Notes under the pieces: model-generated
Databases searched by the model: none
What the model was told of the DNA's origin: nothing
Seen by the model: the letters and a program-made list of their open reading frames with translations, nothing else
Position numbers and translations under genes: made by a program
In this document: positions 20,003 through 52,498 of the stretch, one piece after another
Numbering within the stretch: the first letter of the stretch is position 1
Layout: each line of letters opens with the position of its first letter
Assembly: GCA_963664705.1 (NCBI GenBank)
Contig: OY761556.1
Coordinates: 4,480,001-4,544,000 of the forward strand
DNA length: 64,000 nucleotides
From: Acidobacteriota bacterium
GTDB taxonomy: Bacteria > Acidobacteriota > UBA6911
Direction of reading: 5' to 3'

Positions 20003-21379
20003 CTATTCTTCGGCAGAATCAAAATAATGATTATAGTAGATCCGCTGGGCGGGATTCCGCACGACTCCGGACTGCAATTTCTCAAAGATCGTCCGAGCTG
20101 AGCCATCAATGGTCTGCAGCGGCGTAAAACCGAGCGCCTCATTTAGTTTAGAGAAAGAAACCCGGTAATCGCGCGCATCCAGATTAGAGCCATCCCGGAC
20201 AATCGGAATGCCTCCAAGAGCCGATCCGATCATCTCCGCCACCTGATCGATCTGATAGTTCTGCTCATCCGATCCTACATTAAAAATCTGGTTGCCGACA
20301 GCCTGGAGGTTCGATTCCAGACACCGAACATATACTTCAGCCGCATCCTCCACGCCAAGAAGCGGACGCCATTGCCGACCTCCGAACACCTGGATCTTCT
20401 TATCCACAAACGACTTCATGCTCATGGTATTCACCACCAGATCGAACCGCATTCTTGGCGAATATCCATAAAGAGTTCCCATGCGCAAAATCGTGGGACT
20501 GAAGTATTCATCGCCCATGCCCAGAATTATTTTTTCCGATTCAATCTTGGTGCGCGCATACAAAGAAACCGGGTTCAGGGGAGCGGCCTCATCAAGCAGG
20601 TCCGCACCAATTCCGTACACACTGCAGGTCGAGGCATACAAAAACCGGTTGATATGGTGCAGTTTACTGGCCGAGGCCAGCGCCTGGGCGGCCAGCACAT
20701 TGGTTTCGATCGTCTCGGTCGGGCGCACCTTTGATGCCGGATCCCCCACAATGGCAGCCAGAAGCACCACCGCATCGGTCTCGGCAAGCGAACTCACACA
20801 GGTGTGTATGTTTCGCAGGTCTCCCTCAATAATTTCTAGATTTTCATCCCCCGCTAACGGCTCCAGCGAGCGGCGGCCATAAATAAAGCTGTCAAGAATG
20901 CGAACCTTAAATCCTCGGCTTAAAAGCTTCTGGGTCAGCACGGTCCCCAGGTAACCCGCGCCTCCAACCACCAGAACTCTCCTGGAGGGCTCCAGCGAAC
21001 CCGAATCTATTTTGGGAAGGTTATGCATCTGGACCAGGTCTTCCACCGACAATATTTCCACAATTTTCCCGGCGGCGTTGATGATCGGCAAAAACCGGAT
21101 TCCATGCAACTGCATATCGGAAATCATTTGATCCGCGTTTTGCCGGTTTTTCAGGTCCGCCTGGGTGAACCTGAATGTATGCATCGGATAAGTCCCGATG
21201 CCTTCCTCGCTTTGGGCTCCACTGATCAGCAGTCGCCGCAGCTCCGCCTTGGCAGCGGCCCCCAGGTAGGTACCGGATTCGTCCAGCACAAAAGCAACGT
21301 CAAAGGAACTCTGCTCAATCAGTTGAATAGACTTTTGTATAGAGGTATTGCGTTCCAGACAAACTACAGGGTATTTCAT
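20003..21379 (-). CDS. NAD-dependent epimerase/dehydratase with N-terminal CBS-domain pair
   Basis: CBS-like VLDESGTYLG…LRR and LPIINAAGKIV; SDR motifs GGAGYLG, STCSVYG, YARTK; alternative GTG start at 21385. Confidence 0.85.
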   Translation of the reverse strand: MKYPVVCLERNTSIQKSIQLIEQSSFDVAFVLDESGTYLGAAAKAELRRLLISGAQSEEGIGTYPMHTFRFTQADLKNRQNADQMISDMQLHGIRFLPIINAAGKIVEILSVEDLVQMHNLPKIDSGSLEPSRRVLVVGGAGYLGTVLTQKLLSRGFKVRILDSFIYGRRSLEPLAGDENLEIIEGDLRNIHTCVSSLAETDAVVLLAAIVGDPASKVRPTETIETNVLAAQALASASKLHHINRFLYASTCSVYGIGADLLDEAAPLNPVSLYARTKIESEKIILGMGDEYFSPTILRMGTLYGYSPRMRFDLVVNTMSMKSFVDKKIQVFGGRQWRPLLGVEDAAEVYVRCLESNLQAVGNQIFNVGSDEQNYQIDQVAEMIGSALGGIPIVRDGSNLDARDYRVSFSKLNEALGFTPLQTIDGSARTIFEKLQSGVVRNPAQRIYYNHYFDSAEE

Positions 21380-21434
21380 GTCCACATGCTCCCAACCCCG
21401 AATACCGGGGGCGAGCCCGGAATTGGAACAGGGA

Positions 21435-21470
21435 CCGATTCCGATCCCGATTCCGATTACGGCCCCGATT
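21435..21470. repeat. Hexamer tandem repeat (CCGATY)n
   Basis: ccgattccgatcccgattccgattacggccccgatt. Confidence 0.65.
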
Positions 21471-21484
21471 TGCTTTATAACAGT

Positions 21485-22399
21485 TCACGCCTGGTGCTTC
21501 ATGAACCAATCGACATATCCGCGCATTGCATCTTCATAGGAGACTTCGGGCTCCCACCCCAGCAATTGGCGTGCTTTCTCCGATGAAATAAACCGTCCCT
21601 TGAAATTTCCTTTTCGATCTTCCACAAAAGAAATGGTCGCCTTCTTCCCAATGATCTCTTCCAGCGTTCTAACGATCTGAATCACGCTGATTTTTTTTCG
21701 ACCGTTCAGGTTGAAGATCTGATTTTCCGCCGCCTTGTTTACACAGGCTGCATTGCCGCGCGCGAGATCACGGATATAAATAAACTGCCTTGATTGGCTG
21801 CCATCTCCATGAATAGTGATTGGCTCCCCATGAAGGATGCGCCGGATGAAAATTGGAGTCACGGTTTCCGGGCGGGCTCTTTCACCAAACGGAATACCAT
21901 AGCGCATGATCGTATAATTGACGCCATACAGGGCATTATAGTTTTTGCAGAATAGCTCGGCGGCAATTTTCGATGATGTATAAATGTGATCTGGATTTCC
22001 CGTGGGCGGCGTTTCTTCGGTAATGTTTTCGTCGCCGGCATCGGGCAGGGATCCGTATACCCACTCGGTGGAGGCCAGGATTACGCGCGCAGCGGAGGTA
22101 CGCCGGGCTGCTTCGAGCACCGCGAGGGTAGCATTGGCCGTAATATCATTCGAAAACACCGGGCTCTCGAGAAATCTGTTTACGTTCGCCTCGGCTGCGA
22201 GCAAATAAACAATGTCTCCGTTCTTAACAAGCTGGGATAGACGATCGATGTCCCGGGTATCTCCCCGGACAAAGGCGCATGCCTGGCCATAGTGCGGAGC
22301 CTCCAGGTCATAAATAACAACCTCGTGTCCCTGCTCCATCAACGCATCCACCACGTGGGACCCGATAAACCCGGATCCGCCTGCAACAACGATTTTCAT
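21485..22399 (-). CDS. NAD-dependent epimerase/dehydratase (extended SDR)
   Basis: GGSGFIG, STEWVYG, YTSSK, GDGSQSRQFIYI; GAGG RBS. Confidence 0.9.
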   Translation of the reverse strand: MKIVVAGGSGFIGSHVVDALMEQGHEVVIYDLEAPHYGQACAFVRGDTRDIDRLSQLVKNGDIVYLLAAEANVNRFLESPVFSNDITANATLAVLEAARRTSAARVILASTEWVYGSLPDAGDENITEETPPTGNPDHIYTSSKIAAELFCKNYNALYGVNYTIMRYGIPFGERARPETVTPIFIRRILHGEPITIHGDGSQSRQFIYIRDLARGNAACVNKAAENQIFNLNGRKKISVIQIVRTLEEIIGKKATISFVEDRKGNFKGRFISSEKARQLLGWEPEVSYEDAMRGYVDWFMKHQA

Positions 22400-22486
22400 G
22401 CCTCTTCCTTTTGCTTTATAGGCAGACGGCCCCGGCATGCCCCATCACAATCCGATGCTCGCCAGGGCCGTCTGTCACCGATTCCG

Positions 22487-23806
22487 TTATTTTTCGTGAA
22501 TGCAGAACAATGTGTTCTGCCCTCGGAGAAAGATCTCACCCCCCACAATAGCCGGGGAAGCAACGAACATTTGATCCGCCAGGGTATTAGTCGCCAGGAC
22601 TTCAAAGCTCTCTCCCATCTTCAGAACAACCACATCCTCATTCTCACTGGAGAGATAGAGCTTGCCGTTGACTCCCACGGGGGAAGCCTTGAAGCTGTAT
22701 GTTTTCGGCAACCGTTGCTGTTGATAATAGGGAACACCTGTTTTGGCGCTATAGCAACTGATCATGCCATTGTCGGTCAGAACATATAACTTGTTATCGA
22801 AAAGCACTGGAGAAGCGGTATAGGAATTCCCCTTTGTCTGGCTCCAGACAACCGCATCCGTTCCAGTCAGATCGCCCTCTCTCCCGAGCTTGATGGCCAT
22901 CAGATTAGGATTAATGTAACCGCTCATGACAAACACCATGTCGTCCTGTCGAACCGGATGAGGGATCACATTGACCCCAAGTCCCCCGCACTCCCAGATC
23001 ACTTTGCCGGTTTCAAAATCATAGCTGCGCACCCTTTTGGAAGCAGAGACCAGAATTTGTTTTTTCCCGCCAAATTCAAAGACCAGGGGGGCAGCCCATC
23101 CGGATTTTTCGTCGCGATTGGCTCGCCAGATTTCATTCCCGGTCTTCTTGTCCAGGACAACCATGAAAGAATCTCCTTCATGGTCAAAAACGAGGATCAA
23201 CCGATCCCCCGAAAGGACAGGCCCCATTCCCTCGCCAAAGGACATGCGCATTTTCATCTGGATGCCAAAATCCTTCTTCCATACCAGCTTGCCGTTCATG
23301 TCATAGCAAAACATCCCGCGGGAACCAAAGAAGGCATAAACAAATTTTCCGTCCGTTACCGGCGAATTGGATGCAAAGCTGCCATATTGGGGGTGGTAGC
23401 CTTCATGAGGAACTCCGGTGGTCGCGGTCTGCTCCCATAGCAGCTTTCCCGTTTTGCGATCAAGGCACAGCACTTCAAACTTATGCTCGACCTGCGGGCC
23501 CGGCGTCGTCAGGCCCGGCTTGGCTCCGGGTGCAGGCTTGGGGGCCGGAGGCTCCGAGGCTGCCCCGATCTTGACTGCGGTGGTAAGGAAAATTTTATCG
23601 CCCCAGATCACCGGGCTGGAATGCCCGCGGCCAGGGATATTTGCCTTCCACTTTATATTTTGCGTATCACTCCAATGCAGAGGCGCATCGCCCACGGCCA
23701 TGCCATCGGCTGCAGGCCCACGCCAGTAAGCCCAATTCGTGTTCACTTGAGGCGCTGCACTTAAAGCCACCGCACACAACAGCAAAGTTGCCAGAACAGC
23801 TTTCAT
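22487..23806 (-). CDS. Secreted PQQ-binding-like beta-propeller repeat protein
   Basis: Signal peptide, WAYWRGP, GHSSPVIWG, repeated LDxxTGKxxW; GGAGG RBS. Confidence 0.9.
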   Translation of the reverse strand: MKAVLATLLLCAVALSAAPQVNTNWAYWRGPAADGMAVGDAPLHWSDTQNIKWKANIPGRGHSSPVIWGDKIFLTTAVKIGAASEPPAPKPAPGAKPGLTTPGPQVEHKFEVLCLDRKTGKLLWEQTATTGVPHEGYHPQYGSFASNSPVTDGKFVYAFFGSRGMFCYDMNGKLVWKKDFGIQMKMRMSFGEGMGPVLSGDRLILVFDHEGDSFMVVLDKKTGNEIWRANRDEKSGWAAPLVFEFGGKKQILVSASKRVRSYDFETGKVIWECGGLGVNVIPHPVRQDDMVFVMSGYINPNLMAIKLGREGDLTGTDAVVWSQTKGNSYTASPVLFDNKLYVLTDNGMISCYSAKTGVPYYQQQRLPKTYSFKASPVGVNGKLYLSSENEDVVVLKMGESFEVLATNTLADQMFVASPAIVGGEIFLRGQNTLFCIHEK

Positions 23807-24103
23807 ATGTCCCCCTCCGGTTGGTGCATAAGCTTCATCATTCAGGGGGATAAGGTCAAGAGAAACTTGGAAATGGATCCAATAAAGCCGGGCGCAGGCA
23901 GTGAGGCGGATTGGTTCCCCATGGACTGCCGCCGGCATTATTTGCGATACAGCACTTCCCTGCTCAATCACATCGCCGGCCAATTATTGGTTCTGAAATA
24001 TCGGCAGGAAGGCGACTATTGCCCGCGCCGCGCGGAATTCCATCGTTCATCGGGCAACGCAATTGCCGCCTGAGAAGACCGGGGCAGATCAAACGAATGC
24101 AGA

Positions 24104-24742
24104 TCAGGAAATGCAGGAATCGAAAATGCGGGATGCATCCGGCACGGGAATCCGAATGCGGTACTCGTTCATTTCCCGTCCTTCGGGAGTGGTGGCCCAG
24201 CCGGCAAGGCTGAATCCCAACTCCTGGTAGAATCGGTTCACGGCATCATTCTCAAGTCGATCTGTTGTCAGATTGACCTGAGTGCAGTTGCGGTGCGCAG
24301 CCTCCTCGAGGAACGCACGAACCAACTGCTTGCCGATCCCCATATGCTGGGCATTGGGAGCGACGGCAATAGACATCAGGGTGCCGCAGGTAGCTTCGAC
24401 ATTTGCTTTCGAAGGCATCTGAATCGCCCGGAAAAGACGCCCAATGATCCTGGGCCGTCGCAGCACCGGGCGGATGCTTGCCAGGAAGAACCGGAATAAG
24501 CGCCCGCGCAGCAGCCGTCTGTAGAAATCAGCAAGATGATCACTGCCGGCAACAAAGCCGGTTACGCTCTCTGCGCTCACAAAAACAAAAGCAATGCCGG
24601 AGGGGTCCGCGAGAATTCCGGCATATAGTTCACGCAGAAAACGAGGTCCCAGAAAAGACAAAAAGAACCCCTGGAAGGAAGCCATGTGGATTCGCACGAC
24701 ATCCGGAATATCATCTGATGATAATGGACGTACGCTGTTCAC
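24104..24742 (-). CDS. GNAT-family N-acetyltransferase
   Basis: SIAVAPNAQHMGIGKQL acetyl-CoA motif, NxxVNRFYQELGF. Confidence 0.85.
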   Translation of the reverse strand: MNSVRPLSSDDIPDVVRIHMASFQGFFLSFLGPRFLRELYAGILADPSGIAFVFVSAESVTGFVAGSDHLADFYRRLLRGRLFRFFLASIRPVLRRPRIIGRLFRAIQMPSKANVEATCGTLMSIAVAPNAQHMGIGKQLVRAFLEEAAHRNCTQVNLTTDRLENDAVNRFYQELGFSLAGWATTPEGREMNEYRIRIPVPDASRIFDSCIS

Positions 24743-24838: not shown

Positions 24839-25078
24839 TCAACTGAATATGCGATGGCGCCGGGAGTTTTTAACCGGGAGGTATGACATGCGTTTCGCGG
24901 CTCTTCGCTCCGGGCCGGAATACCTGGATTTCCTGATGCGTATGGGCTGGCTGCCAACAACGACCCATCCGCTCGAACGGCGAAACGCGGCAATTCTGCC
25001 CAGTTGTATCATTTGATCCAGTTTTGAAGCATCCAGCATGCCTTCGCTGTAATCATTGCCTATTACCTCAATCAACAT
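24839..25078 (-). CDS. Small GSU3473-family-like protein
   Basis: MLIEV…LDQMI…I..FRRSSGWVVVG..PIR…YSGPERR pattern; GAGG RBS. Confidence 0.7.
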   Translation of the reverse strand: MLIEVIGNDYSEGMLDASKLDQMIQLGRIAAFRRSSGWVVVGSQPIRIRKSRYSGPERRAAKRMSYLPVKNSRRHRIFS

Positions 25079-25098: not shown

Positions 25099-26067
25099 TC
25101 AGTTGCGATAGCGCGGACTCCTGAAATCTGAGAATACGTTGCTGTGAATGGCCTGGATAACTTCTCTCGCACCATCCCCGATCCTGCGCCGGGTATTCAG
25201 GCCCAGTGTTTTTTTGATCTTCTCGAAGGAAACCCGATAGTCCCGCGGATCTTCGTTCTTATGCACTCTTTCGATTTCAACGGGGAAATCAAGCAACGAG
25301 CGGATCACGTCGACAATCTGCCCCTTGGTGTAGTTTTCGTCGCTGCTGCCGACATTGAAGACCTGGCCGCATACCCTTTCGACCGGGCTGTTCAGGACCA
25401 GGGTAATGGCTGCCACGACATCCGTTATGTGCACATAGGGACGCCAAAACTGTTCTCCAAAAATCGCGAGCCGGCGGTTTGTGAAAAGCTCCATTGCAAA
25501 TTCGTTGATAGTAAGGTCAAAGCGCATGCGCCGGGAAAGCCCGTGCAAGGTCGCAAAGCGAAGAATCGTTGGCGCGGGGCATGCCTTGGGGTGGCCGAGA
25601 AGCTTTTTCTCCACCGCAACCTTCGTCTCCGCATAAAGAGAGACCGGCCGCAATTCCGCCTCCTCATCGGCCGGCATGCCTGGATCCCTCATCTTGCCAT
25701 AGTTGCTGCAGGTTGATGAGAATACAAACCGCTGCACACCGGATTGAACGCTCGCTTCAAAGAGAGCCAGCGAGGCATCAAGGTTGATGGACTTCGCCAT
25801 TTCCGGCATCCGGGAACAGGCCGGGTCGCCCACGATCGCGGCAAGATGAATCACCGCATCCGTTCCGTGACATGCCTGTTCACACACGTCCTGCTTTCGA
25901 ATATCGCCTGGAATAAACTCAAAATTTTCCTGGCCCAAACATCCAAGCAGCGATTCACCGCCATACATCAATGAGTCCACTACCCGCACTTTGTGCCCGA
26001 GGGACAGAAGGCATGGCGTCAGCACAGACCCCAGATATCCGGCCCCTCCCGAAATTAGAATTCGCAT
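25099..26067 (-). CDS. NAD-dependent epimerase/dehydratase; paralog of the SDR domain of 20003-21379
   Basis: GGAGYLG, LAAIVGDPAC, SSTCSNYG, YAETK, RMRFDL, DPRDYRVSF; GGAGG RBS. Confidence 0.9.
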   Translation of the reverse strand: MRILISGGAGYLGSVLTPCLLSLGHKVRVVDSLMYGGESLLGCLGQENFEFIPGDIRKQDVCEQACHGTDAVIHLAAIVGDPACSRMPEMAKSINLDASLALFEASVQSGVQRFVFSSTCSNYGKMRDPGMPADEEAELRPVSLYAETKVAVEKKLLGHPKACPAPTILRFATLHGLSRRMRFDLTINEFAMELFTNRRLAIFGEQFWRPYVHITDVVAAITLVLNSPVERVCGQVFNVGSSDENYTKGQIVDVIRSLLDFPVEIERVHKNEDPRDYRVSFEKIKKTLGLNTRRRIGDGAREVIQAIHSNVFSDFRSPRYRN

Positions 26068-26429: not shown

Positions 26430-27311
26430 ATGAAAAAGACCTGTGTGGTTTTTCTTAGCATAGTATCCGTTTTATTTGTATTTGGGCAGGCTTTTGCCTC
26501 TGATGCGACATTGGCATGGAATGCCGTGTCATCGGCAGAACTTGCAGGCTATAAGCTCTATTATGGTACGGTTTCAGGCAGCTATGGAACTTCTATCGTT
26601 GTAGGCAACAGCACGTCTTACACAATTTCAGGCCTTCAGGCCGGGACAACCTATTACATCGCGATCACAGCATACGATAGCGCTCTCAAAGAAAGTCCAT
26701 TTTCGGCTGAAATAACGGCGACAACGCCTCAGACGGCGCCATCGATATCCAATGTTCAAAATACACTTCTCACTTCAAATAGCGCCACCATTAGTTGGAA
26801 TACGAATCTGGCTTCGGACTCTAATGTGGATTATGGATTGGATACGAGCTACGGACTTACGGCATCGAACAGCAGTAATGTCACCAGTCACATCGGGAAT
26901 CTGGCCAACCTGAATGCCAGCACCCAGTATCACTACCGAGTGCGCTCCAAAACATCGACCGGGGTTCAATCAGCATCGGCCGATTTCACCCTCACCACAT
27001 TGACCGCTGCCGATACGACTCCACCGGTAATCACCGGGATCGCCAGCAGCAGCATTACCTACTCGGGCGCCGCAATATCGTGGACAACCAACGAGGGCGC
27101 CACCTCACAGGTACAATATGGGACAACCAGTCTTTATGGAAGCGCCTCCACGCTGAACAGCACTTTGCAAACATCGCATTACCAAGCCCTGGGCGGATTA
27201 TCTCCCAGCACGACATATCACTATCGAGTAGTGTCCAAGGACTCGGCCGGCAACATCGCAACCTCGCCTGATTTCACTTTCAGAACCGCGAAACGTCGCC
27301 AACAACGTTAG
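26430..27311 (+). CDS. Secreted protein with three fibronectin type III domains
   Basis: Signal peptide (QAFA), LAW…GYKLYYG…L.AGTTYY.A.TAYD, two repeats of ATISW.T…V.YG…YG…L..L…T.YHYRV.S. Confidence 0.88.
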   Translation: MKKTCVVFLSIVSVLFVFGQAFASDATLAWNAVSSAELAGYKLYYGTVSGSYGTSIVVGNSTSYTISGLQAGTTYYIAITAYDSALKESPFSAEITATTPQTAPSISNVQNTLLTSNSATISWNTNLASDSNVDYGLDTSYGLTASNSSNVTSHIGNLANLNASTQYHYRVRSKTSTGVQSASADFTLTTLTAADTTPPVITGIASSSITYSGAAISWTTNEGATSQVQYGTTSLYGSASTLNSTLQTSHYQALGGLSPSTTYHYRVVSKDSAGNIATSPDFTFRTAKRRQQR

Positions 27312-27414
27312 GTGAACATATCCAAAGAAAGGGACATCATTTATGTCGGCTGGAGCATCAAAAGACTTGAATAGGAACCGGTATCACCGAATCATTTTTA
27401 ATACGAGGCCAATT

Positions 27415-30019: not shown

Positions 30020-30059
30020 ACCATCATTCCAATAAAAGGGATTGGCGGAACCGGCCGCA

Positions 30060-30797: not shown

Positions 30798-30860
30798 AGC
30801 GGGGATGGTCTCTCAGAATGGCGCCAGGAACCCTGATTTTATTTATGAAAATATTGCAGC

Positions 30861-33664: not shown

Positions 33665-33695
33665 TGAAATATTTCCAGCGTCCTCTGAGTGGAAA

Positions 33696-36055: not shown

Positions 36056-36067
36056 CGCCAAAACTGC

Positions 36068-37654: not shown

Positions 37655-37700
37655 TCAGACCCAGTGAAAGCTCCCATCGATAATAGCGGGTACCGTGGCG

Positions 37701-39763: not shown

Positions 39764-39764
39764 G

Positions 39765-40334: not shown

Positions 40335-40368
40335 TTAAAACGGTATGGCCTGGCACCGTCATTCATTA

Positions 40369-42794: not shown

Positions 42795-42836
42795 GCGGAA
42801 AACATCGAAGCAGAACTTTTGAATCCTACCTATGTG

Positions 42837-43787
42837 TTAATTTTTGGCAGTCAACACCTGCCCAGGCGGATGAAGGCAAACGGGCCAGGCCTGCTGATCC
42901 AGCGGACGCTGTCCCTCCAGATAAAACCGAAGCATGCCAACCAGTTTGGGCAGGAACGAGTGTACAGACATACGGATTGAGAGCTTTTTGAGAACGCCCA
43001 CCAGGGCCGGCTGGACCATGGGCGCCAGCCAGGGATGCAACACAACGCGCTGACGCACCGGTCTGGCCACGTACCCCATCCTGAACTTGAACTCATCCAC
43101 ACTGGGAGAAGCATCCAGCGACTGAAAAGCGTAAAACAGCAAAGAGATCCCGGGCCGGTTCACCATTGTTTGCGTTACCACGAATGTAAGCGCGTTATTC
43201 ACACGTTTTCCCAGGTATTCGTGATGGCATTGCTGCGACAGAAACTCGCAGCAGTCCCCCATTTGAAAGGTCAATAACGATGCCACCAGCCTTTCTTCCG
43301 CTATTGCTCCCCAGGCCTCAAATCCCGGGAGCCTGGCTGCCAGATTGCACCTCCGGTGCCACCTGGATTCGTCGAGATCGAGCTTTCGGCTCTGCCGATC
43401 CACAGTGTCTTTCTCAAGTGCCCAGCCCTCTTCCGCCAATCGTCGAAGGCTGATCGGCTCTACCCTGCAGTTATTCAAACCGGTTCGCACATTTTGGCGG
43501 CTGCGCCGGTCAAGAATCTCCAGGCTATATTTGGCCGCCTGATAAACGGCATGGTAGCTGATGCAACCCAGCGGGCTCTCGAGAGGTGCGGAATAGCGCA
43601 ACGCGAGCGCGCGGCTTTTCACGAGGATCTTTCCCAGTTCCTGCTCGGAGGGCTGTACAAGCCAGTGATAGGGAAAGGCCTGGTAAGCCCCGAACCCGGC
43701 GTCAAACCAGAAACTGCTGTGAGTCCGCAGTACCCGGTGGCCCTGGCATCTCAGCCATTCGGCAAAGACTTCAGCGTCCATATGCAC
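42837..43787 (-). CDS. Hypothetical protein, probable FemAB/GNAT-like fold
   Basis: L.RRSRQNVRTGL, WGA…LVA, NNAL.F, SVDEFKFRMGY resemble the tandem-GNAT FemAB/BioF2 pattern. Confidence 0.55.
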   Translation of the reverse strand: MHMDAEVFAEWLRCQGHRVLRTHSSFWFDAGFGAYQAFPYHWLVQPSEQELGKILVKSRALALRYSAPLESPLGCISYHAVYQAAKYSLEILDRRSRQNVRTGLNNCRVEPISLRRLAEEGWALEKDTVDRQSRKLDLDESRWHRRCNLAARLPGFEAWGAIAEERLVASLLTFQMGDCCEFLSQQCHHEYLGKRVNNALTFVVTQTMVNRPGISLLFYAFQSLDASPSVDEFKFRMGYVARPVRQRVVLHPWLAPMVQPALVGVLKKLSIRMSVHSFLPKLVGMLRFYLEGQRPLDQQAWPVCLHPPGQVLTAKN

Positions 43788-43856: not shown

Positions 43857-45962
43857 TCATTGGCTATTCCGCAGAGAAGAACCTGCGAGTTTTAGGGACC
43901 TTGGCTGGCCATACGCCATCTGCAGATCATGGAGATGTCCGGAGTTTCCTGAATACGTCAATAAGTCACAGCGAGTCACCTCTTGGGTGTGAATCCGGCT
44001 ATCTTCAGGCACATACAGGTGCACTTGACTGGGGACGGGCCATTGGTATCCCTTGATCTGGAATGGCTGGGCCATAAGCGTCCGGGCGCGCCGGAGCACG
44101 GTCTCAGCCGCCAGATCGTCCCCCAAGTCGTCGAAAAGCAAAGCAAACTCGCAGTTGCCGGTATAGGACAAAGTGTCGCTTTCTCTCGTGCAGCCTGCCA
44201 GCCGCCTGGCCACCTGTCCCAATAATTCCTGTGAGGCATGAATCCGGTTCCCGTCCACCAGGCGGCTGGAGTCCTCCAGATCGATGGTCAGCAGCGCCGG
44301 CGTTGTGTGATAGCGCCTGGCGCAGGCCAATGAATGCTGCAACCGCTCTCGAAGAAGCGTCCCGTTGGGCAACCCTGTCAGCAGATCGTGCTGCGGCAGT
44401 GAATCCACACGATGCTGCGACCACTCGAGATACTGAATGGACTCCGTGGGACGATTTTCATTCCCATAGGCCAAAAGGTCGTCCAGAAAGACAGCCTTGA
44501 TTCCGGCTCTGTCCATGAGCTCAAAGATTGCCTCTTCAAGGCCCTTCAGTACATTGGGAACCGTGTATACGATCAGTCGGACATCATGTTCCTTGATAAG
44601 CAAAGGAAGATCTCCAATCCCGCCCAACACCCGGCTGCCATGCAACTGCATGCCTTGATTGGTCGGGTCTTCCGTTGCAACGATTCCCACAATAGAAAAG
44701 GCATGACGGAAGATGTCGCGCCGGAGGAGCCAGTTGGCGACCTGAGAGGCTTCGCCATCGCCCACAATCAGGACACGCTCTCCCATCCCTCGCCTTTTTC
44801 CCGACGCCGTCATCCGACCCTGCGTAATCCATGTCAGAAGCCGGAATCGATAACGCACAAAAATAAACCCGCTCTGCGCCAACAGGCCGGTACAGAGAAT
44901 CATCCCAAATGGAAGAGGCGGGAATGCAAACCACTGGAAACTGGATTGCGCCTCATTGAGAGACAGGGCGATCAGAGTCCCTGCCCCCGCGGTAAAAAAC
45001 AAGCCAACCGCGTCTTCGGCATTGGCTCTGGACCAGATAATGCGATGCAATCCGGCCAGGTAATTGAATGCGCTGAAAATGAAAGCCAGGCAGAAGGCGA
45101 AGAGGACCACATACTTCTCCCCCCAGTTCAGAGGCCCCTGGATGCGCCAGATAAGCGTGGAAGCGGATACGGCGGCAAAAGAGCAGCAAAAATCGCATAC
45201 CAGCCAGGAAGCATAACGGTGGACGATGCGAGACAACGGCCCCGCAAACAGGTAACCCTCCGGAATTCTCACCGGGCAAAGGCGCGGAGTGAGAATCGAC
45301 AGTGTCCACAGAATGGTATCCAGGTCCGAGGTAAAAGACCGGTTGCGAACATAAAGCTGGTCCAGGCGCAGCTTGTCGGGAAGGATGTCTTTGATATATT
45401 TCCCGGTTAGATTATCGCTGGTCAGTAAATCCTCTTCACTGTGATAGAGAACGCTTGCCGGACTGGTGATCCCCGGCCTCATCGAAAGGATCTCGCGGCG
45501 AATGGAGGAAGGATAGGAATCGATGAAAACAGGGTCTTCCGGGCGAGGCCCGACAAGGCTCATGTCGCCCACAAGCACATTCCATAACTGCGGCAGTTCA
45601 TTTATTTTCGTATCTCGCAACCAGCGTCCCAGCCGGGTGATGCGCGGATCGTCCTTCGCAGTAAGCCTTGGACCGCTGTGAGTTTCGGGACGTTCATACA
45701 TGGTCCGGAACTTGAGAATCTGGAAAAGCTGCCCTCCTTTGCCCACACGAGGGCCGCGGTAAAAAACCGGACCGGGAGATTCCCGCACCACCAGCAGGCC
45801 AATGATCAACAGGAACGGGCTAAGCAAAATAAGGCCTGCCAATGAAAGCAATACGTCAAAAACCCTTTTTACCGCCTCACTCAGAGTTGAGCGAAGGGAG
45901 CAGGTATCACCCTCCTTTTGAAAACAGCCTGCCGCGAATTCGACCTGTCGCAAATCAATCAC
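43857..45962 (-). CDS. Priming phosphoglycosyl transferase (Bac_transf) fused to a TM bundle, a Rossmann/CoA-binding-like domain and a degenerate GGDEF domain
   Basis: KRVFD, KFRTM, DPRIT.LGRWLR.TKINELPQL.NV..GDMSLVGPRP, PGITS; RVLIVGDGEAS; HDLLTGLPN…RESDTLSYTGNCEF; GTG at 45962 follows the upstream stop (TTG at 46016 is an alternative). Confidence 0.85.
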   Translation of the reverse strand: MIDLRQVEFAAGCFQKEGDTCSLRSTLSEAVKRVFDVLLSLAGLILLSPFLLIIGLLVVRESPGPVFYRGPRVGKGGQLFQILKFRTMYERPETHSGPRLTAKDDPRITRLGRWLRDTKINELPQLWNVLVGDMSLVGPRPEDPVFIDSYPSSIRREILSMRPGITSPASVLYHSEEDLLTSDNLTGKYIKDILPDKLRLDQLYVRNRSFTSDLDTILWTLSILTPRLCPVRIPEGYLFAGPLSRIVHRYASWLVCDFCCSFAAVSASTLIWRIQGPLNWGEKYVVLFAFCLAFIFSAFNYLAGLHRIIWSRANAEDAVGLFFTAGAGTLIALSLNEAQSSFQWFAFPPLPFGMILCTGLLAQSGFIFVRYRFRLLTWITQGRMTASGKRRGMGERVLIVGDGEASQVANWLLRRDIFRHAFSIVGIVATEDPTNQGMQLHGSRVLGGIGDLPLLIKEHDVRLIVYTVPNVLKGLEEAIFELMDRAGIKAVFLDDLLAYGNENRPTESIQYLEWSQHRVDSLPQHDLLTGLPNGTLLRERLQHSLACARRYHTTPALLTIDLEDSSRLVDGNRIHASQELLGQVARRLAGCTRESDTLSYTGNCEFALLFDDLGDDLAAETVLRRARTLMAQPFQIKGYQWPVPSQVHLYVPEDSRIHTQEVTRCDLLTYSGNSGHLHDLQMAYGQPRSLKLAGSSLRNSQ

Positions 45963-45963: not shown

Positions 45964-47127
45964 TTATTTGCCTTCAGCTCCCAATGCCTGGCGGATGATG
46001 GAACAGATGCCTTCAACAGCCTCTCGCGTCAGACCGGGGAACAAAGGAAGGGTGATCGCGCGCTGAGAAAAGGCAACACTCTTGGGCAGATCCTCGCCCC
46101 GAAAGGCTTCGAAGGCTTTAAACCAGGGGATATAAGGGTAATGCAGGCTGGTTTGAATCCTTGCGTCCCTGAGCGCGTGAACAACGCTATTCCGGCAGGT
46201 TGCATCAGGCGCCACCAGAACCGCAAGATGGCAGGCGCTGTCGCCCGAATAGTCGGAGAAAGCAAACCGGCAGCCGGCGATCTGATCCAATTCGTTCCTG
46301 TAGATCAGGGAGAGATCGCTGCGGCGGCGGTTGTTCCCATCAAGCTTTTCCAACTGCGCCCGACCCAGCGCAGCGTGTATCTCATCCAACCGATAGTTGT
46401 AACCGTTGGCAGTCACATCATAGCTGTACGCGTGCCCTCGATGTCGATCCCAGGAGAGAGAGGTCATGCCGTGAGAGCGAAGCTTGCGAACGGAATCTGC
46501 CAGATCCTCACGATCAGTTGTGATCATCCCTCCCTCTCCAACCGCGAGGTTCTTATTGCTGAAGAAGGAAAAACAGCCAATGTCACCAATCCGGCCAGCC
46601 ATTCTGCCGTTCGCCTTTCCTGCCGTGCACGCATAATGCGCTCCCACGGCATGGCAGGAGTCTTCCACCAGTGCAAGCTTATGCTCGCTGCAAATATCCA
46701 GGATCTCGCCCATTCTCGTCAGATAGCCGCCATAGTGCATGACAATGACGGCCCTGGTTCGCGGCGTTATCCGCAGCCGGATCTGTTCCGGATCGATCGT
46801 CGGTTCCGCAATCCCAACAATATCTCCAAACACCGGCACACACCCCGCCGCGAGGGTCATATTCGCAGCCGCTACAAAGTTGATTGCCGGTTGAATCACC
46901 TCATCCTGTCGGTTGAGACCCAGCGCAACCAGGGCAAGGTGCAGAGCGGCCGTCCCGTTTGCAACAGCAATGGCATATTTCGCACCGATCCGTGATGCAA
47001 ATTCATGCTCAAATGCCTCTACCTCCGATCCCATGGAAAGCCATCTGCTGTCGAGGACACGAAGCACCGCATCTCTTTCAGCATCGCCGTAGTCCAGATC
47101 ACTTAGTGGTATGCGCCATTCAGACAA
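45964..47127 (-). CDS. DegT/DnrJ/EryC1/StrS family PLP aminotransferase
   Basis: ANGTAALHL, EDSCHAVG, FSFFSNKNLAVGEGG, GYNYRLDE; TTG start with GAGGA RBS. Confidence 0.93.
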   Translation of the reverse strand: MSEWRIPLSDLDYGDAERDAVLRVLDSRWLSMGSEVEAFEHEFASRIGAKYAIAVANGTAALHLALVALGLNRQDEVIQPAINFVAAANMTLAAGCVPVFGDIVGIAEPTIDPEQIRLRITPRTRAVIVMHYGGYLTRMGEILDICSEHKLALVEDSCHAVGAHYACTAGKANGRMAGRIGDIGCFSFFSNKNLAVGEGGMITTDREDLADSVRKLRSHGMTSLSWDRHRGHAYSYDVTANGYNYRLDEIHAALGRAQLEKLDGNNRRRSDLSLIYRNELDQIAGCRFAFSDYSGDSACHLAVLVAPDATCRNSVVHALRDARIQTSLHYPYIPWFKAFEAFRGEDLPKSVAFSQRAITLPLFPGLTREAVEGICSIIRQALGAEGK

Positions 47128-47905
47128 GTATGAAATCCTCCTTTTTCTCCGCATAGATCTCCTGGGCACGCGCATAATCGTCAGGACGGCCGATATCGAG
47201 CCAGAGGCAATCGCTCGGATAGGCGCAGACGCGTTCCCCGTGTTTGAGCAGCTTTATCACAAGGTCGGGAAAGTCCAGATAGCAGCCGGGCTCGATATAA
47301 CGAATCACTTCGGGCTCATAGACATAAATGCCCATACTGACGTTATAGCTGCTCTTCGGTTTTTCCAGATACCGTGCCACGGTAAAACCACCGTCGAACT
47401 CCAATACGCCAAGATCGATTTTTACTTCCCGCTTCTGCACGCCGATCGTTAACATTGCGCGTTGGTCCCGGTGAAAACTGACCAATTCGTGGATATTCAT
47501 GTTTGTCAGAAGATCGCCATTGAGCGCGAGGAATGTTTCATGCAGCGCAGGGATGGAAGCAAGCGATCCGGCGGTACCGGTCGGTTCATGTTCTTCAACA
47601 TAGTGCAAGGTACACCGTTCGGTCAGCGATCGACGGTGTTGCATGTAGGCCTTTATCAGCTCAGCCAAATGGCCAAGAGTGAGCGTAATATCGGTGATGC
47701 CATGCTGAACCAGGCGATAAATCAGCACTTCCAGAACGGGAATGTCGCCCAGCGGAACAAGAGGCTTGGGGAAACTGGCAGTGTACGGAGCCAGGCGGGT
47801 GCCTTTGCCGCCGGCAAGAATCACCGCACGCATTCCAGTCGCCGCACCGGAGGGCGATACTTTGCCATTCCCGGGGATTGTACTTTGTAGCGCGGTTGCA
47901 TTCAT
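47120..47905 (-). CDS. Sugar-phosphate nucleotidyltransferase
   Basis: AVILAGGKGTRL.PYT..FPKPL, E.EPTGTAG, NGDLL, WLDIGRPDDY; GGAGG RBS. Confidence 0.92.
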   Translation of the reverse strand: MNATALQSTIPGNGKVSPSGAATGMRAVILAGGKGTRLAPYTASFPKPLVPLGDIPVLEVLIYRLVQHGITDITLTLGHLAELIKAYMQHRRSLTERCTLHYVEEHEPTGTAGSLASIPALHETFLALNGDLLTNMNIHELVSFHRDQRAMLTIGVQKREVKIDLGVLEFDGGFTVARYLEKPKSSYNVSMGIYVYEPEVIRYIEPGCYLDFPDLVIKLLKHGERVCAYPSDCLWLDIGRPDDYARAQEIYAEKKEDFILV

Positions 47906-47969
47906 GCGGTCCTCCCCTACGGTCTTATCAATTTGGGTCACAATCGCTTTCGTCAAACAGACTGCCGCC

Positions 47970-48713
47970 TCACAACCGGCGATAGAGCGCTTCGGGAATC
48001 GGGTATGCCCGCTGAGTGAGAACGGCTCCGAGAATTCGTATATTCAGGGCATCCAGATCCTGCCGCGCTTTTAGCGCGGCCGCGCGGCGCGTGGAGTTTG
48101 CGGCAATGACCAGGACAACACCATCCGCAATCCGGCCAAGCACCAGGGCTTCCGCCAGCTCATTCACCGGGGGAGCATTGAAGAGAACGTATTTGAATTG
48201 TGCGGTCAATTCCGAAAGGCGTTCTTTCAGGTGCACCGGGCTGGCGGGCACCGAATCCGAAACCGGCGGCCTTAAATCGCCGGATAGAAGCCACAGGTTG
48301 TTGCCGCGAATCAAATGGGCACCGTTTTTTGCGCCGCAGTGAGTTGTTGCAGGATTTTCGTGGCTGTCCGCGAAACTCTCTCCGAAATAATGGTCGAGTG
48401 CGGGAGAAACAGGATCCCCATTGATAAGGCAGATTTTGTCTTCGACCTGGCCGGCCAGCAACTCTCCCACCTGTGCGCATATCACGCTGCTGCAGGCATT
48501 GTGATCGACCGGGCAGAAAACAACGACATGAGGAGCGGACGAGCCTCCAAGCAGAAACAGGCGGGCTATCAATTTCAGTATTTCCGGTTGTCCGTGCCCG
48601 TTTCCATTGTGGTGCTCCGGAGCATATCCGGCCGAGCACTCCGCTGGCGATTCATGCCGGAACAGTTCAACATCTCTCCTGACCGCACGCAAAAGCTCAT
48701 AGTTTTTGCTCAT
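47970..48713 (-). CDS. CpsD/CapB (BY-kinase) family protein with degenerate Walker motifs
   Basis: Recognisable C-half (L..L..QF.YVLFNAPPV…ADGVVLVI.AN.TRR…ILGAVL…YPIP..LY); Walker A, A' and B all substituted. Confidence 0.8.
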   Translation of the reverse strand: MSKNYELLRAVRRDVELFRHESPAECSAGYAPEHHNGNGHGQPEILKLIARLFLLGGSSAPHVVVFCPVDHNACSSVICAQVGELLAGQVEDKICLINGDPVSPALDHYFGESFADSHENPATTHCGAKNGAHLIRGNNLWLLSGDLRPPVSDSVPASPVHLKERLSELTAQFKYVLFNAPPVNELAEALVLGRIADGVVLVIAANSTRRAAALKARQDLDALNIRILGAVLTQRAYPIPEALYRRL

Positions 48714-50119
48714 TGTTTACTCCCGGGTTGAGCTTGTTTCTGGAGATAGACCCCTGATCCCGAGACCGGGATGCTCAATGCAGAGGTTGATTCGCCTTGC
48801 CGCAAAGGCAGACGGAGTTCCTGACCCTCCCAGATTTCGTCCGGTGTGACGATCTGGGGATTCAGAACCAGGATTTCCTTTAAAAGATTTGGGTCCAGCC
48901 TGCGCCCCAGGTATTTTTTTGCGATTGAACCCAAAGCCTCTCCCTTCTGCACAGTCACCGAAAAGTCAGGGGCAGGACTGGAAGCCGTAGCGCTCACGGC
49001 TACCGGTACAGGCTGGGGAGCAGTCTTTGGCTCGAACAGGAAGTAGCCCGCGCTCACCAACGCCAAGGCCATGGCCAAGCCGATGCCGGCTCGATAAGGA
49101 TGACGCAGCAGGCGGGGCTTTGCGCAAAACAGGTTAATCCGCAGTCTGTCAAAGGAACAATCTGTGCCTGTTTCCTCGAGGTTGGTCCGGAGCGCCTCAC
49201 CGCAAGCCTGTTTTTCTGAAGCAAAAACCGGCTGTCTCTCGGAAAGAATCGGCTTTGAAGCCACCGGCTCCTCCGGGCTCAAAGCATCGGCGCTCCGGTG
49301 GTGAGGGAAGGGCAAGCTGAGGCGCATATCGGAAATGGTTTCCTGCATCATCGAGGCATCCACCCTTTTCGCCTGTCGGGCACAAGCCAGCGAAAGCGAA
49401 TTGAAGCATAAGCAGTTGATGAGGCGCGGAATCCCTTCCGAAGCTTCGGTGAGTTGCTCCAGGGCACCGGACCTGAACAGGAATGGGCCGCGATACCCGG
49501 ATATGCAAAGCCTGTGTTCAATGTACTCTCTGATTTCGGCCGGGTTCAGAGGAGACAACCTCGCCGCTGCGGATATCCGTTGTCGAAACTGTGCCAGATT
49601 GGATCGCTTCAGTTTCTCCTCGAGCTGGCTCTGGCCGGAAAGCAGGATCTGAATGATTTTGTGGTCCGGTCTTTCGAAATTGGAAAGGAGCCGCAATGTT
49701 TCCAGCGTTGCAGGGGTCAGATTCTGCGCCTCATCTATAACTAACACGAGCTGCTTTCCGGTCTGCGCAAACCCGGTCAGAATCTCGTTGACCTTTAAAT
49801 GCAATTCGGCCAGGTCGTGGGTATCTGTTCTATAGCCAAGATCCGCCAATAAAAAGCGAAGCAGTTCCCCCGGACCATAGCGGGTCTGAAACAGAAAAGC
49901 CGTCTGATAATCGGGCCGGAGGTTTTCCAGCAACTGAAACGCGAGGGTCGTTTTGCCGAAACCCGGCGGAGCAATCAGCGCAATGAATCCCCTTTCCGTT
50001 TTGATGCCATAGTAGAGAGTGGCCAGGGCCTCCCGGTGGGAACGGCTCCAATAAAGGTATTTCGGATCCGGGGTCGTTCCAAACGGTTGCTCTCTGAAAC
50101 CAAAAAAGCTCAAGAACAT
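48710..50119 (-). CDS. ExeA-family AAA ATPase with TM segment and C-terminal LysM domain
   Basis: F.SFFGF.EQPF..TPDP, PGFGKT, VIDEAQNL, LRLLSN.E, GIPRLIN; VTVQKGEALGSIA…NP.I…I.EGQELRLP. Confidence 0.9.
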   Translation of the reverse strand: MFLSFFGFREQPFGTTPDPKYLYWSRSHREALATLYYGIKTERGFIALIAPPGFGKTTLAFQLLENLRPDYQTAFLFQTRYGPGELLRFLLADLGYRTDTHDLAELHLKVNEILTGFAQTGKQLVLVIDEAQNLTPATLETLRLLSNFERPDHKIIQILLSGQSQLEEKLKRSNLAQFRQRISAAARLSPLNPAEIREYIEHRLCISGYRGPFLFRSGALEQLTEASEGIPRLINCLCFNSLSLACARQAKRVDASMMQETISDMRLSLPFPHHRSADALSPEEPVASKPILSERQPVFASEKQACGEALRTNLEETGTDCSFDRLRINLFCAKPRLLRHPYRAGIGLAMALALVSAGYFLFEPKTAPQPVPVAVSATASSPAPDFSVTVQKGEALGSIAKKYLGRRLDPNLLKEILVLNPQIVTPDEIWEGQELRLPLRQGESTSALSIPVSGSGVYLQKQAQPGSKQ

Positions 50120-50145
50120 AGGCGCACAATAGGTGGCAAAAACTG

Positions 50146-51735
50146 CTATCTGGGAAGGGAGGCAAGTACGGGAACGCCCAGAAGAGCTTCGACTTCATCG
50201 GCCGTTCTGAGCGAAGGATCGATATGGTCGGCGGCAAAAGCCAGACCAATGCTGCCGGCAAACGCCAGCAGCACTCCCAGAACCAAGAACAGGAAGCGGC
50301 TGGGACCGGACGGAAAAGCCGGAAGAGTTGCAGCCTCCGCAATGGTTGCGTTGACAATTCGCTTGTGGTCCAGGGCATCCGAGATTCTCGCCTCTTCCTC
50401 TTTCCTGGAATATAGAAGGTAGTTTTCCTCTGCGCTTTTTGACGCCCGGACCAGATCCTGGTATTCGATGCCTTTCCGGCCGATCTGTTGGGCATTCTGT
50501 CTGCCGGCGTTGATGCTGCCCGCAAGAGATTCCATTTTGGCCCTCAGGGTAGCCCGTTCAGCCTGAGCTTTGGCCAGCTCTTCATCCAGCCATAATCGGG
50601 TCCTGTCAAGATCGGTTGTCTCATCAACCAGTGATTTTGTTTCCGCATTGCGGATCGCTTCGCGCGTCAGTGTAATCTGATCATCCGCCTCCACGACCAG
50701 CCGGTAGCCCGGTTCAAATTTTGTGAGCAGTTCGGTTCGCTTCATTTCAAGGGTCAACAGCGTTGTCCGGAGTTGTTGTACCAGAGATGAGTTAGGAGAG
50801 GTCCTTACCTGAGTAGTGACGCGCAACGGAGTAGCCGCTGCCTGCGTTTGAAGCGCCTTTATTCGCTTATCCAGTGACGCTTCAGCAGCCCGCGCCTCCT
50901 GCAATTCGGTTTCAAGGCTATTCAACGCGCGCAATGCGTTATCCTTTTCCAAATCCAGCGAAACGATTCCCTCCTTTTTTCCAAAAGCCGCCAGCTGCGC
51001 CTCTGCTATTTCCAACTCGCTCCGGTATTGCTTTGCCTGCTGCTGGAAAAACTCCAAAGCACCCGGAGGTCGGTGCACGGAGAGATGCTTCTCAAGATAC
51101 AAGCCGGCCAGGGTTCTCAAAACAAACATGGATCGCCGCGGGTCGGTTGCCCGGTAGCGCACGTCAATCAAGTGTGACTTGCTGATCGGCTCGACGGTGA
51201 GATTCTGTGCCAGGTCGCGCACGGCCTCGGGGACGCGCATATCTCGCGAATCTCCGTCATTTTCTCCGGGCATCCATCTCGTCAAGCCGGCAGGGAGAGA
51301 AAACCCGCCTGGAAGCCTGTGCAGCCCGCATGTAATGACGACCTTCTCAAGAAGATCGCTGCTTTTAAGCAACTCAACTTCTGAATTGAGATCCTCCTGC
51401 GTAACATCCGAAAGGCTGAGGTCGCGCACATTCGCGCCAGGGGCGAGCACCATATTTGCCCGTTCATGCTTCACCAGGATCTTCATGTCGGACTCGTACT
51501 GTCTTGGCATAAGGAACGTCACGAGGCAAATAATGGCCAATATGAAAGAAAACGACAGGACAACCAGCCGCAGATGGCGAAACAAAACAGCGAGCAAGTC
51601 GCGCATCGTGACCGGTCGCGTTCTGAAATCCGACGGAATGCCCGGAATGCGCCCGCCAGGCAATGGCATCCCCTCATATTGATTGGCTTGAACAGCCGTA
51701 CCGTGAATCGATGGCCGAGAGATCGATTCTTCCAT
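50146..51735 (-). CDS. GumC/Wzc-N polysaccharide chain-length determinant (co-polymerase), no fused kinase
   Basis: RDLLAVLFRH plus TM, SEVELLKS, long coiled coil, TM2, DPSLRT.DEVE..LGVPVLASLP. Confidence 0.88.
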   Translation of the reverse strand: MEESISRPSIHGTAVQANQYEGMPLPGGRIPGIPSDFRTRPVTMRDLLAVLFRHLRLVVLSFSFILAIICLVTFLMPRQYESDMKILVKHERANMVLAPGANVRDLSLSDVTQEDLNSEVELLKSSDLLEKVVITCGLHRLPGGFSLPAGLTRWMPGENDGDSRDMRVPEAVRDLAQNLTVEPISKSHLIDVRYRATDPRRSMFVLRTLAGLYLEKHLSVHRPPGALEFFQQQAKQYRSELEIAEAQLAAFGKKEGIVSLDLEKDNALRALNSLETELQEARAAEASLDKRIKALQTQAAATPLRVTTQVRTSPNSSLVQQLRTTLLTLEMKRTELLTKFEPGYRLVVEADDQITLTREAIRNAETKSLVDETTDLDRTRLWLDEELAKAQAERATLRAKMESLAGSINAGRQNAQQIGRKGIEYQDLVRASKSAEENYLLYSRKEEEARISDALDHKRIVNATIAEAATLPAFPSGPSRFLFLVLGVLLAFAGSIGLAFAADHIDPSLRTADEVEALLGVPVLASLPR

Positions 51736-51805
51736 AAGTTTCTCCTTGGGTGTTATCCGTTAGGCAATGAAGGCGGCTGGAGGAGACAATAGCCGGGCAG
51801 CCAAC

Positions 51806-52498
51806 TCAACGAGGCAAATAGGAGCCAATGGACATCGACGGAATAAATCGCTGTATCTTGGAGATGGTGTTTTGCGGTATGTAAATCATATCGCCGGGAC
51901 GAAGGTGCACATCTTCCTTTAAATTCCCTGAAGTCAGCATAGCTTTCACATCCAACAGTTTCTGTTCAGTCCATTCATCCGAAATCCGGTGCCAAAGAAG
52001 AACCTGGGAGTGCCGGGAGCTTTCCTTGAAACCGCCGGCTATCTGGACTGCCTGAGTCACGGTTGTATCGCCGCGAAGATCATACTTTCCCGGACGGCCC
52101 ACTTCCCCGCCGGCAATGAAGTAGGGCTTCTCAAAATCCTTGAGCTGAACAGTTACAACAGGATCATGAAGAATACCGGAATAGAGCTTTTTTAGCGCTT
52201 CCGTCAATTCCGGCGTGGTCTTCCCTGCAGCGCGCAAATCCGGCAACTCACGAAGATTTATAAAGCCATCCGGCTGGATTGTTACGGCCTGATTGAACTC
52301 CGGCGTAAGCCGGAAGGTAATCTCGATGGCATCCCCGATCTGCAGCCTATATCGCATATCATGCGGCCAGAGGACGGGCTCAGCAGCTTTTGAGGATTGC
52401 TCCTGTGCCAGGCTCCTTCCCGTCGGCAGAGAACAAGCCAGGAGGAAAAGAAACACAAGCCCGACGGTTGTTGGAACTTTTTTGAGTTTCATGAGCAA
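51806..52498 (-). CDS. Polysaccharide biosynthesis/export protein (Wza-like; Poly_export plus SLBB)
   Basis: YRLQIGD…TIQPDGFINL…AAGKT, GGEVGRPGKY, AGGF, LRPGDMIYIP. Confidence 0.9.
   Translation of the reverse strand: MLMKLKKVPTTVGLVFLFLLACSLPTGRSLAQEQSSKAAEPVLWPHDMRYRLQIGDAIEITFRLTPEFNQAVTIQPDGFINLRELPDLRAAGKTTPELTEALKKLYSGILHDPVVTVQLKDFEKPYFIAGGEVGRPGKYDLRGDTTVTQAVQIAGGFKESSRHSQVLLWHRISDEWTEQKLLDVKAMLTSGNLKEDVHLRPGDMIYIPQNTISKIQRFIPSMSIGSYLPR

Follow-up and report, generated by a model that had tools for sequence, protein, structure and literature searches.

How is the production of an exported polysaccharide controlled when the kinase-fold protein of its gene cluster has lost the kinase motifs and its priming enzyme carries a degenerate GGDEF domain? 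This question is raised by a 64,000-nucleotide stretch of the genome of an Acidobacteriota bacterium (GenBank assembly GCA_963664705.1, contig OY761556.1, positions 4,480,001 to 4,544,000; G000:C1:4480001-4544000 in our labelling), the whole of which is called the window here. The genome, G000, consists of a single contig and is 98% complete. The genes of the window were identified by open reading frame calling, followed by scans for Pfam and NCBIfam families. The original prediction for this locus was that nucleotide-sensing modules replace tyrosine-kinase control as one system. This larger claim does not hold. The explanation that we favour, with moderate confidence, is that the polysaccharide island of the window is a Wzx/Wzy cluster in which two modules of separate inheritance, one for export and one for priming, are combined, and that a dead GGDEF domain fused to the priming enzyme gates the priming step through cyclic di-GMP (c-di-GMP).

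The priming enzyme is encoded by the only phosphoglycosyl transferase (PGT) gene of the island.

43857..45962, minus strand: priming PGT of 701 amino acids (aa), with PF02397 and PF00990

This protein consists, in this order, of a monotopic PGT (monoPGT) domain with Asn121-Glu122, a four-helix membrane bundle, a Rossmann-like DUF (domain of unknown function) and a degenerate GGDEF domain. As originally predicted for this fusion, the GGDEF domain retains an RxxD motif (RESD); it has YTGNCEF in place of GG[DE]EF. Its I-site comprises R593, D596 and R625, the last of which is presumably the equivalent of R390 of PleD. The RxxD motif lies five residues ahead of the degenerate motif and is accompanied by a second primary-site Arg, which is the sequence pattern of an I-site receptor. 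The fold of the structure model (pLDDT 82.4, pTM 0.69) matches those of PleD, PglC and WbaP.

A search with residues 245-680 of the protein gives 257 matches, and the figures given here for the family rest on the best 120 of them. PF02397 and PF00990 occur together in 109 of these 120, at 36-52% identity, and the named proteins among the fusion matches are those of Chloroflexota. A metagenome scan with the GGDEF part alone gives no match, a motif scan gives 30 loci, and a scan of genome contigs gives at least one GGDEF-bearing locus. In the family alignment (115 rows for the GGDEF positions and 113 rows for the PGT dyad), R593 is retained in 113/115, D596 in 115/115 and R625 in 111/115 rows. 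In contrast, GG[DE]EF is found in 0/115 rows and the metal-binding and guanine-binding positions of the A-site are variable, which is not the pattern of an active diguanylate cyclase. The ratio of nonsynonymous to synonymous substitution rates (dN/dS), estimated by a crude Nei-Gojobori procedure, with pairs that include the window sequence itself mostly saturated, is 0.06-0.32 for the GGDEF part in nine of 10 pairs; the other pair is saturated. Neutral decay of the GGDEF domain is rejected by these values. Because the degenerate domain is under selection with a near-invariant I-site, it is a good hypothesis that c-di-GMP controls the priming enzyme. Second-messenger control, as proposed in the original prediction, is supported to this extent, but not in place of kinase control. 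c-di-GMP is likely made in G000, because 12 of the 17 GGDEF matches of this genome keep GG[DE]EF.

The GGDEF domain may instead serve for dimerisation or protein docking, with RxxD kept for folding and not for c-di-GMP. RxxD and the downstream Arg are indeed common in GGDEF domains. However, the I-site residues are 97-100% conserved while the catalytic positions drift freely, and an apparently independent gain of the domain, described below, shows the same pattern, so that such a structural role is quite improbable. PelD and PopA are degenerate-GGDEF I-site receptors that have lost the catalytic motif and kept RxxD. The window protein is similar to both in the lost motif and the kept RxxD, and to PelD also in the link to a polysaccharide. 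It is dissimilar to both in that its predicted receptor domain is fused to a priming enzyme of a Wzx/Wzy system, whereas PelD and PopA are separate proteins and PelD serves a synthase-type system. The literature searches reveal neither a PGT-GGDEF fusion nor an Asn-Glu monoPGT, although absence from print is not thereby established.

In a quick tree of 35 proteins, built from the GGDEF-free core, 15 GGDEF forms make up one clade (SH-aLRT 98) and the form of genome G419 stands apart, so that the GGDEF label needs two changes. The G419 domain keeps an RxxD motif (REVD) and has lost the catalytic motif, yet it scores 68.6 bits to ordinary cyclase domains and at most 48.1 bits to those of the family. 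Two gains are therefore likely, and the GGDEF domain was apparently acquired twice. The window protein and its relatives from the class nest among Chloroflexota sequences in the same tree, which suggests lateral transfer.

The PGT domain is altered at its active site, a change that the original prediction missed. In the alignment, position 121 corresponds to Asp in the Asp-Glu dyad (DE of WbaP) and is Asn in 113/113 rows; the Asn-Glu dyad is also found in GGDEF-less forms from Anaerolineae. In PglC, the Asp of the Asp-Glu dyad is proposed to act as the covalent nucleophile (PMC10859629). The equivalents of the other PglC active-site residues (K59, R88, E94 and R111) are all invariant in the family, and dN/dS of the PGT domain is 0.02-0.17. 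The protein has the PF02397 fold of the monotopic PGT superfamily with the re-entrant helix and the K/R/R residues, and it lacks the Asp-Glu dyad.

The domain order is also unusual. Large monoPGTs (WbaP/WcaJ) have four transmembrane (TM) helices, the DUF and a C-terminal catalytic domain, while the order in the window protein is PGT-4TM-DUF-GGDEF. At L065:6059-8575, in a locus labelled Desulfomonile, an Asn-Glu PGT is fused to the DUF and to a PglF-type dehydratase that has decayed; its operon also includes genes for GlmS, a phosphomutase and a nucleotidyltransferase and a LegB-like gene. This form suggests that the order arose by fusion of a small PGT to a PglF-like protein. According to PMC10942596, PglF and large PGTs have the 4TM-DUF part in common. 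The window protein is similar to PglC and to WbaP/EpsZ in the catalytic fold and the substrate-orienting residues, and in the 4-TM bundle and the DUF (PMC10942596, PMC12802240, PMC10859629), the latter of which is implicated in allosteric control of WbaP and EpsZ (PMC10942596, PMC12802240). It differs from them in its N-terminal catalytic domain, probably acquired by fusion to a PglF-like protein with a lost dehydratase, in Asn-Glu for Asp-Glu, and in the added C-terminal degenerate GGDEF domain. A stand-alone Asn-Glu monoPGT of 222 aa, which belongs to a different subfamily (39% identity), is encoded in G761 (L212:9470-10138), next to a gene that resembles PglF/FlaA1 by eye.

Replacement of the nucleophile in all 113 rows raises the possibility that the protein is a pseudo-PGT, namely a sensor or scaffold in the membrane to which a nucleoside diphosphate (NDP)-sugar and c-di-GMP bind and which organises the pathway, and that one of three Asp-Glu PGTs encoded elsewhere in G000 primes the polymer. 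The decayed dehydratase domain of the L065 relative also speaks for this possibility. However, no PGT other than the fusion is seen in most loci, the remaining active-site residues are invariant with the low dN/dS given above, the loci retain their own genes for donor synthesis, and a small stand-alone Asn-Glu PGT exists in G761. A pseudo-PGT is therefore unlikely.

The genes for donor synthesis that lie nearest to the PGT gene are as follows.

45964..47175, minus strand: DegT/PseC/LegC-type sugar aminotransferase (PF01041)
47120..47956, minus strand: sugar-1-phosphate nucleotidyltransferase (PF00483)

The nucleotidyltransferase is presumably PtmE-like, judged from its context. When the comparison is limited to loci that extend 4 kb or more to both sides of the PGT gene (18 Asn-Glu and 31 Asp-Glu loci), the nucleotidyltransferase gene adjoins the PGT gene in 15/18 Asn-Glu loci, a LegB-like or window-type dehydratase gene in 13/18 and the DegT gene in 15/18, as compared with 0/31 Asp-Glu loci for each. 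When all loci are counted, the numbers are 28, 28 and 27 of 41 Asn-Glu loci and 0/52 Asp-Glu loci. This contrast is overstated, because the loci are related and the queries were drawn from the fusion family itself. LegB and PtmE are described as GDP-specific (PMC5378307), and the association of the PGT with PtmE-like, LegB-like and DegT genes hints at a GDP-linked donor. Against the cut-off of 475 bits for LegB (TIGR04180), the neighbours in four relatives score 409-418 bits and the window enzyme scores 89 bits, so that none of them is assigned to LegB. The module is similar to the PtmE/LegB/LegC route (PMC5378307) in that many loci have genes for a nucleotidyltransferase, a LegB-like dehydratase and an aminotransferase on the flanks of the PGT gene, to which L065 adds those for GlmS and a phosphomutase. 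It differs in the LegB-like scores below the cut-off, in the other type of dehydratase in the window, and in that a PGT apparently uses the product.

The export module of the island consists of four genes.

51806..52498, minus strand: Wza-like outer membrane polysaccharide export (OPX) protein, first gene of the island (PF02563 and SLBB)
50146..51735, minus strand: polysaccharide co-polymerase (PCP) of the PCP-2/GumC type (PF02706; TIGR03007 below its cut-off)
48710..50119, minus strand: ExeA-type AAA ATPase-TM-LysM protein (PF13401, PF01476; TIGR03015 at 238 bits, below its cut-off)
47970..48713, minus strand: stand-alone bacterial tyrosine (BY) pseudokinase of the CapB fold (TIGR01007 at 42 bits, cut-off 108)

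The OPX protein shows 57-66% identity to those of G028, G033, G014 and G112 and 43% identity to that of G107. The PCP has 529 aa and two TM segments, ends about 30 aa past the second of them, lacks a kinase domain and has no Tyr in its final 40 aa. In the alignment of the CapB homologue, Walker A reads CPVDHNACSS, A' reads INGD and B reads FNAPP, and the Tyr cluster is absent, in agreement with the original prediction of a dead kinase. Its matches in the PDB are BceF, VpsO and CapAB. Walker A is also lost in four orthologues, and dN/dS is 0.14-0.17 for the four unsaturated of 10 pairs. Neutral decay of the pseudokinase is rejected by these values, and its sequence indicates that the protein is catalytically dead and maintained by purifying selection.

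A PCP without a fused kinase, together with a stand-alone homologue without the Walker A/A'/B consensus or a Tyr-rich tail, has the features of the PCP-2/BY-pseudokinase type. It does not have those of the canonical Wzc/Wzb type (PCP-2a/2b), which are an active Tyr-clustered BY kinase and a phosphatase. The former is a described and widespread subfamily according to PMC12004946 (EcpK-EpsV, HfsB-HfsA), so that this part of the island is, judged by its motifs, of an already described type. The similarity to EcpK-EpsV of Myxococcus xanthus, HfsB-HfsA of Caulobacter crescentus and SYN_00779/00780 of Syntrophus lies in the kinase-less PCP and in a kinase-fold protein that stands alone and has neither Walker motifs nor a Tyr tail, within a Wzx/Wzy cluster (PMC12004946). 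Unlike these pairs, the two genes in the window, which are paired from gene content, are separated by an intact ExeA-LysM ATPase gene, which the original prediction also missed. Walker A (APPGFGKT) and Walker B (DEAQ) of this ATPase are intact, and its gene lies between the PCP and pseudokinase genes in all six pseudokinase genomes of the class and in L124. The ATPase may be the energy input of the export module. G000 has three further ExeA-like genes.

Among the 116 genomes of the class that were searched (a G-numbered set that includes G000), the PGT-GGDEF fusion is found in four (G000, G003, G028 and G033). The pseudokinase query matches 10 genomes; six have stand-alone orthologues, and the other four, which encode long fused proteins, are left out of the counts. 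Three of the six pseudokinase genomes (G014, G112 and G107) retain wza-gumC-exeA-pseudokinase with Asp-Glu PGTs nearby, and the fusion is not found in these genomes, which are 88-99% complete. G003 carries the fusion and gives no pseudokinase match. Export and priming modules are neighbours, with the pseudokinase next to the fusion, in five loci (G000, G028, G033, L124 and L133), but are interchangeable. On the Chloroflexota side, 66 of 301 Anaerolineales genomes have the family and five have the GGDEF form. In four of these five, a gene within 20 kb and in the same orientation encodes a Wzc-like protein in which Walker A, A' and B are intact and the last 45 residues contain four Tyr; the fifth locus is limited by its contig. 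The metagenomic loci L116 and L127 encode a fused Wzc with an intact Walker A and without the terminal Tyr cluster. In L112, L116, L127, L131, L132 and L135, fused proteins similar to Wzc have a long acidic extension at the C terminus and no terminal Tyr cluster.

Two further parts had been assigned to the same system, a small protein with a YxGPxRR motif and an epimerase fused to a CBS domain.

24839..25078, minus strand: GSU3473-family small protein with YSGPERR (NF045719 at 74 bits, cut-off 40)
20003..23983, minus strand: backbone outside the island with the PQQ-propeller, epimerase and CBS-epimerase genes, conserved in relatives
20003-21385, minus strand, within this backbone: CBS-epimerase (PF00571, E 2.4e-7)

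The small protein is as predicted and its gene is inside the island, but it is neither a conserved partner nor a member of a circuit. Its family is found in three of the 116 genomes of the class and, outside G000, never with the pseudokinase or the fusion (two of the three carriers have neither). Copies elsewhere adjoin genes unrelated to exopolysaccharide (EPS), for hydrolases, histidine kinases and a LysR protein, and no such gene is found in any other fusion locus examined. As to its function, an atlas search gives only GSU3473-type or hypothetical clusters, and a literature search gives no match. In 81 genomes sampled around G126, the family is found in one, G485 (L191-L196), with six copies, two of which are less than 1 kb apart.

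The polysaccharide genes form an insertion of about 29 kb, at about 24.1-52.5 kb of the window, between the PQQ-propeller gene and ethD. In eight of nine relatives, the site is empty, with no more than 1.4 kb between ethD and the backbone block, which indicates that the cluster is an insertion and that 20003-23983 is backbone. The predicted parts are therefore not all in one locus; the CBS-epimerase gene is real, but it belongs to the backbone and is not part of the regulatory circuit of the island. Full-length matches to it are found in 26 other genomes of the class (56-81% identity), it sits between an RRM gene and a second epimerase gene in 9/9 loci checked, and it is on a different contig from the polysaccharide locus in G003, G014 and G028. 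The CBS-epimerase and the adjoining epimerase (20003-22438) are a conserved pair, seen in the majority of genomes of the genus and in 7/7 genomes of a second genus; in the loci checked, polysaccharide genes are not linked to them.

These distributions bear on the claim of a single circuit, in which the pseudokinase, the PGT-GGDEF protein, the GSU3473 protein and the CBS-epimerase would act together and c-di-GMP or energy charge would replace the Wzc/Wzb cycle. All four parts lie within 33 kb in G000, the pseudokinase adjoins the fusion in the five loci given above, and no match to a low-molecular-weight protein tyrosine phosphatase (PF01451) or to CpsB/CapC (PF19567) is found anywhere in G000. 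No diguanylate cyclase, phosphodiesterase, phosphatase or transcription-factor family is matched among the window open reading frames scanned, as was originally noted. In addition, the Caulobacter holdfast system pairs the HfsB pseudokinase with the c-di-GMP-activated HfsJ (PMC12004946, PMC9980756). However, every part is found without the others, so that the expected co-occurrence in relatives fails and the claim is largely refuted at the family level, and the CBS-epimerase is outside the insertion. The missing phosphatase is not specific to the island, because it is missing genome-wide despite two intact Tyr-tailed BY kinases elsewhere in G000 (C1:1411303-1413705, 800 aa; C1:3724765-3725688, 307 aa); a phosphatase for them, if any, is of another type. 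A single circuit is thus very improbable, and one integrated nucleotide-sensing system is rejected on the independent distributions and on the position of the CBS-epimerase.

The remaining features of the island are as follows.

28922..43787, minus strand: variable sugar-building block (Pfam/NCBIfam), partly common to G028, G033 and Anaerolineae loci
36068-37654, minus strand, within this block: Wzx candidate
33696-34922, minus strand, within this block: Wzy (PF04932)
26430..28860, plus strand: secreted FN3-repeat protein and pectate-lyase-like protein, each of which the G028 locus encodes as well
25099..26067, minus strand: NAD-dependent epimerase/dehydratase, 54-58% identical to the enzyme encoded directly downstream of PGT-GGDEF in nine metagenomic loci
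24104..24742, minus strand: GNAT acetyltransferase, last gene of the island, with homologues adjoining Asn-Glu PGTs in Anaerolineae

The variable block encodes a GNAT/FemAB-like protein, three GT4s, a second DegT protein, Fcl, Gmd, the Wzx candidate, Wzy, a GINT1-like protein, a methyltransferase and an acyltransferase. The Wza-like protein, the GumC-type PCP and Wzy are thus present as predicted. Wzx is supported by 12 hydrophobic segments and a conserved place in relatives, but not by a Pfam or NCBIfam match. A Cys-rich protein of 189 aa without a family match is encoded at 39765-40334. It is conserved (41-50%) in several loci of Anaerolineae, where its gene lies directly upstream of that for the Asn-Glu PGT. 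An Rfam search of the window gives no match at the gathering score, including no riboswitch, and no sigma-70-like site is matched upstream of wza. Outside the island, the window contains an IS3-type element at 62669-63797 (helix-turn-helix transposase orfA and integrase-core orfB) and two tandem TonB-dependent-receptor-like barrels of 1200 aa at 7360-15182.

Several observations weigh against the favoured explanation or its parts. GGDEF-less forms are the only ones in 61 of the 66 Anaerolineales genomes with the family, so that the GGDEF domain is dispensable for the family. The fusion copies of G028 and G033 are frameshifted, probably because of sequencing error, since other genes of those assemblies are also frameshifted. 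The PGT could be inactive, with the proposed nucleophile of PglC replaced. As for the donor, the small Asn-Glu PGT of G761 has no nucleotidyltransferase gene of the module nearby, the dehydratase of the window is not LegB-like, and a second nucleotidyltransferase-DegT pair is present in a PGT-less flagellar locus of G000. The rule that Asn-Glu always means a GDP donor is rejected by G761. The flagellar locus (G000:C1:2326641-2333165) lies beside flagellin genes and resembles one for nonulosonic-acid synthesis by eye.

According to the favoured explanation, the nucleotidyltransferase, dehydratase, DegT and GNAT proteins would produce an NDP-4-acetamido-6-deoxy-hexosamine, which might, tentatively, be GDP-linked as in the LegB/PtmE route. 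The Asn-Glu PGT, which is probably an active enzyme, would load this sugar on undecaprenyl phosphate by a chemistry other than that of the canonical Asp nucleophile. c-di-GMP from cyclases encoded elsewhere in the genome would quite probably bind to R593, D596 and R625. This binding would alter PGT activity, most simply through the dimer interface of the DUF, which is described to control WbaP and EpsZ (PMC10942596, PMC12802240), with activation as the usual case. The pseudokinase would bind the PCP tail as a scaffold without phosphorylation, as EcpK and HfsB do. c-di-GMP control would then be an add-on usable with either kinase type and not a kinase replacement. The Caulobacter holdfast pathway, in which HfsJ is bound and activated by c-di-GMP, is similar in the Wzx/Wzy system, the pseudokinase and an early glycosyl-transfer step under c-di-GMP, which is predicted here (PMC9980756). 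It differs in that HfsJ is a predicted glycolipid glycosyltransferase and not a PGT-GGDEF protein (PMC9980756). That the fusion represents an undescribed class of priming enzyme, which transfers a GDP-amino-sugar without a covalent Asp intermediate and is switched by c-di-GMP through a twice-acquired dead GGDEF domain, is rather doubtful, though it deserves consideration.

New here are the co-occurrence test, which fails, the boundary of the island, a probable second gain of the GGDEF domain and the association with a donor module that may be of the GDP type. According to a 2025 paper, the control of Wzx/Wzy pathways after translation is not fully understood, whereas c-di-GMP control of synthase-type pathways is well characterised (PMC12802240). 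A c-di-GMP site fused to the priming enzyme would allow messenger control to be tested in a single protein, at the step where the shared undecaprenyl-phosphate pool is committed, with GGDEF-bearing and GGDEF-less relatives as natural controls. The invariant Asn at the nucleophile position offers a test of the universality of the covalent-Asp mechanism in monoPGTs. If the favoured explanation is true, the first step of a Wzx/Wzy pathway would carry its own second-messenger gate, usable whether or not tyrosine-kinase control is present.

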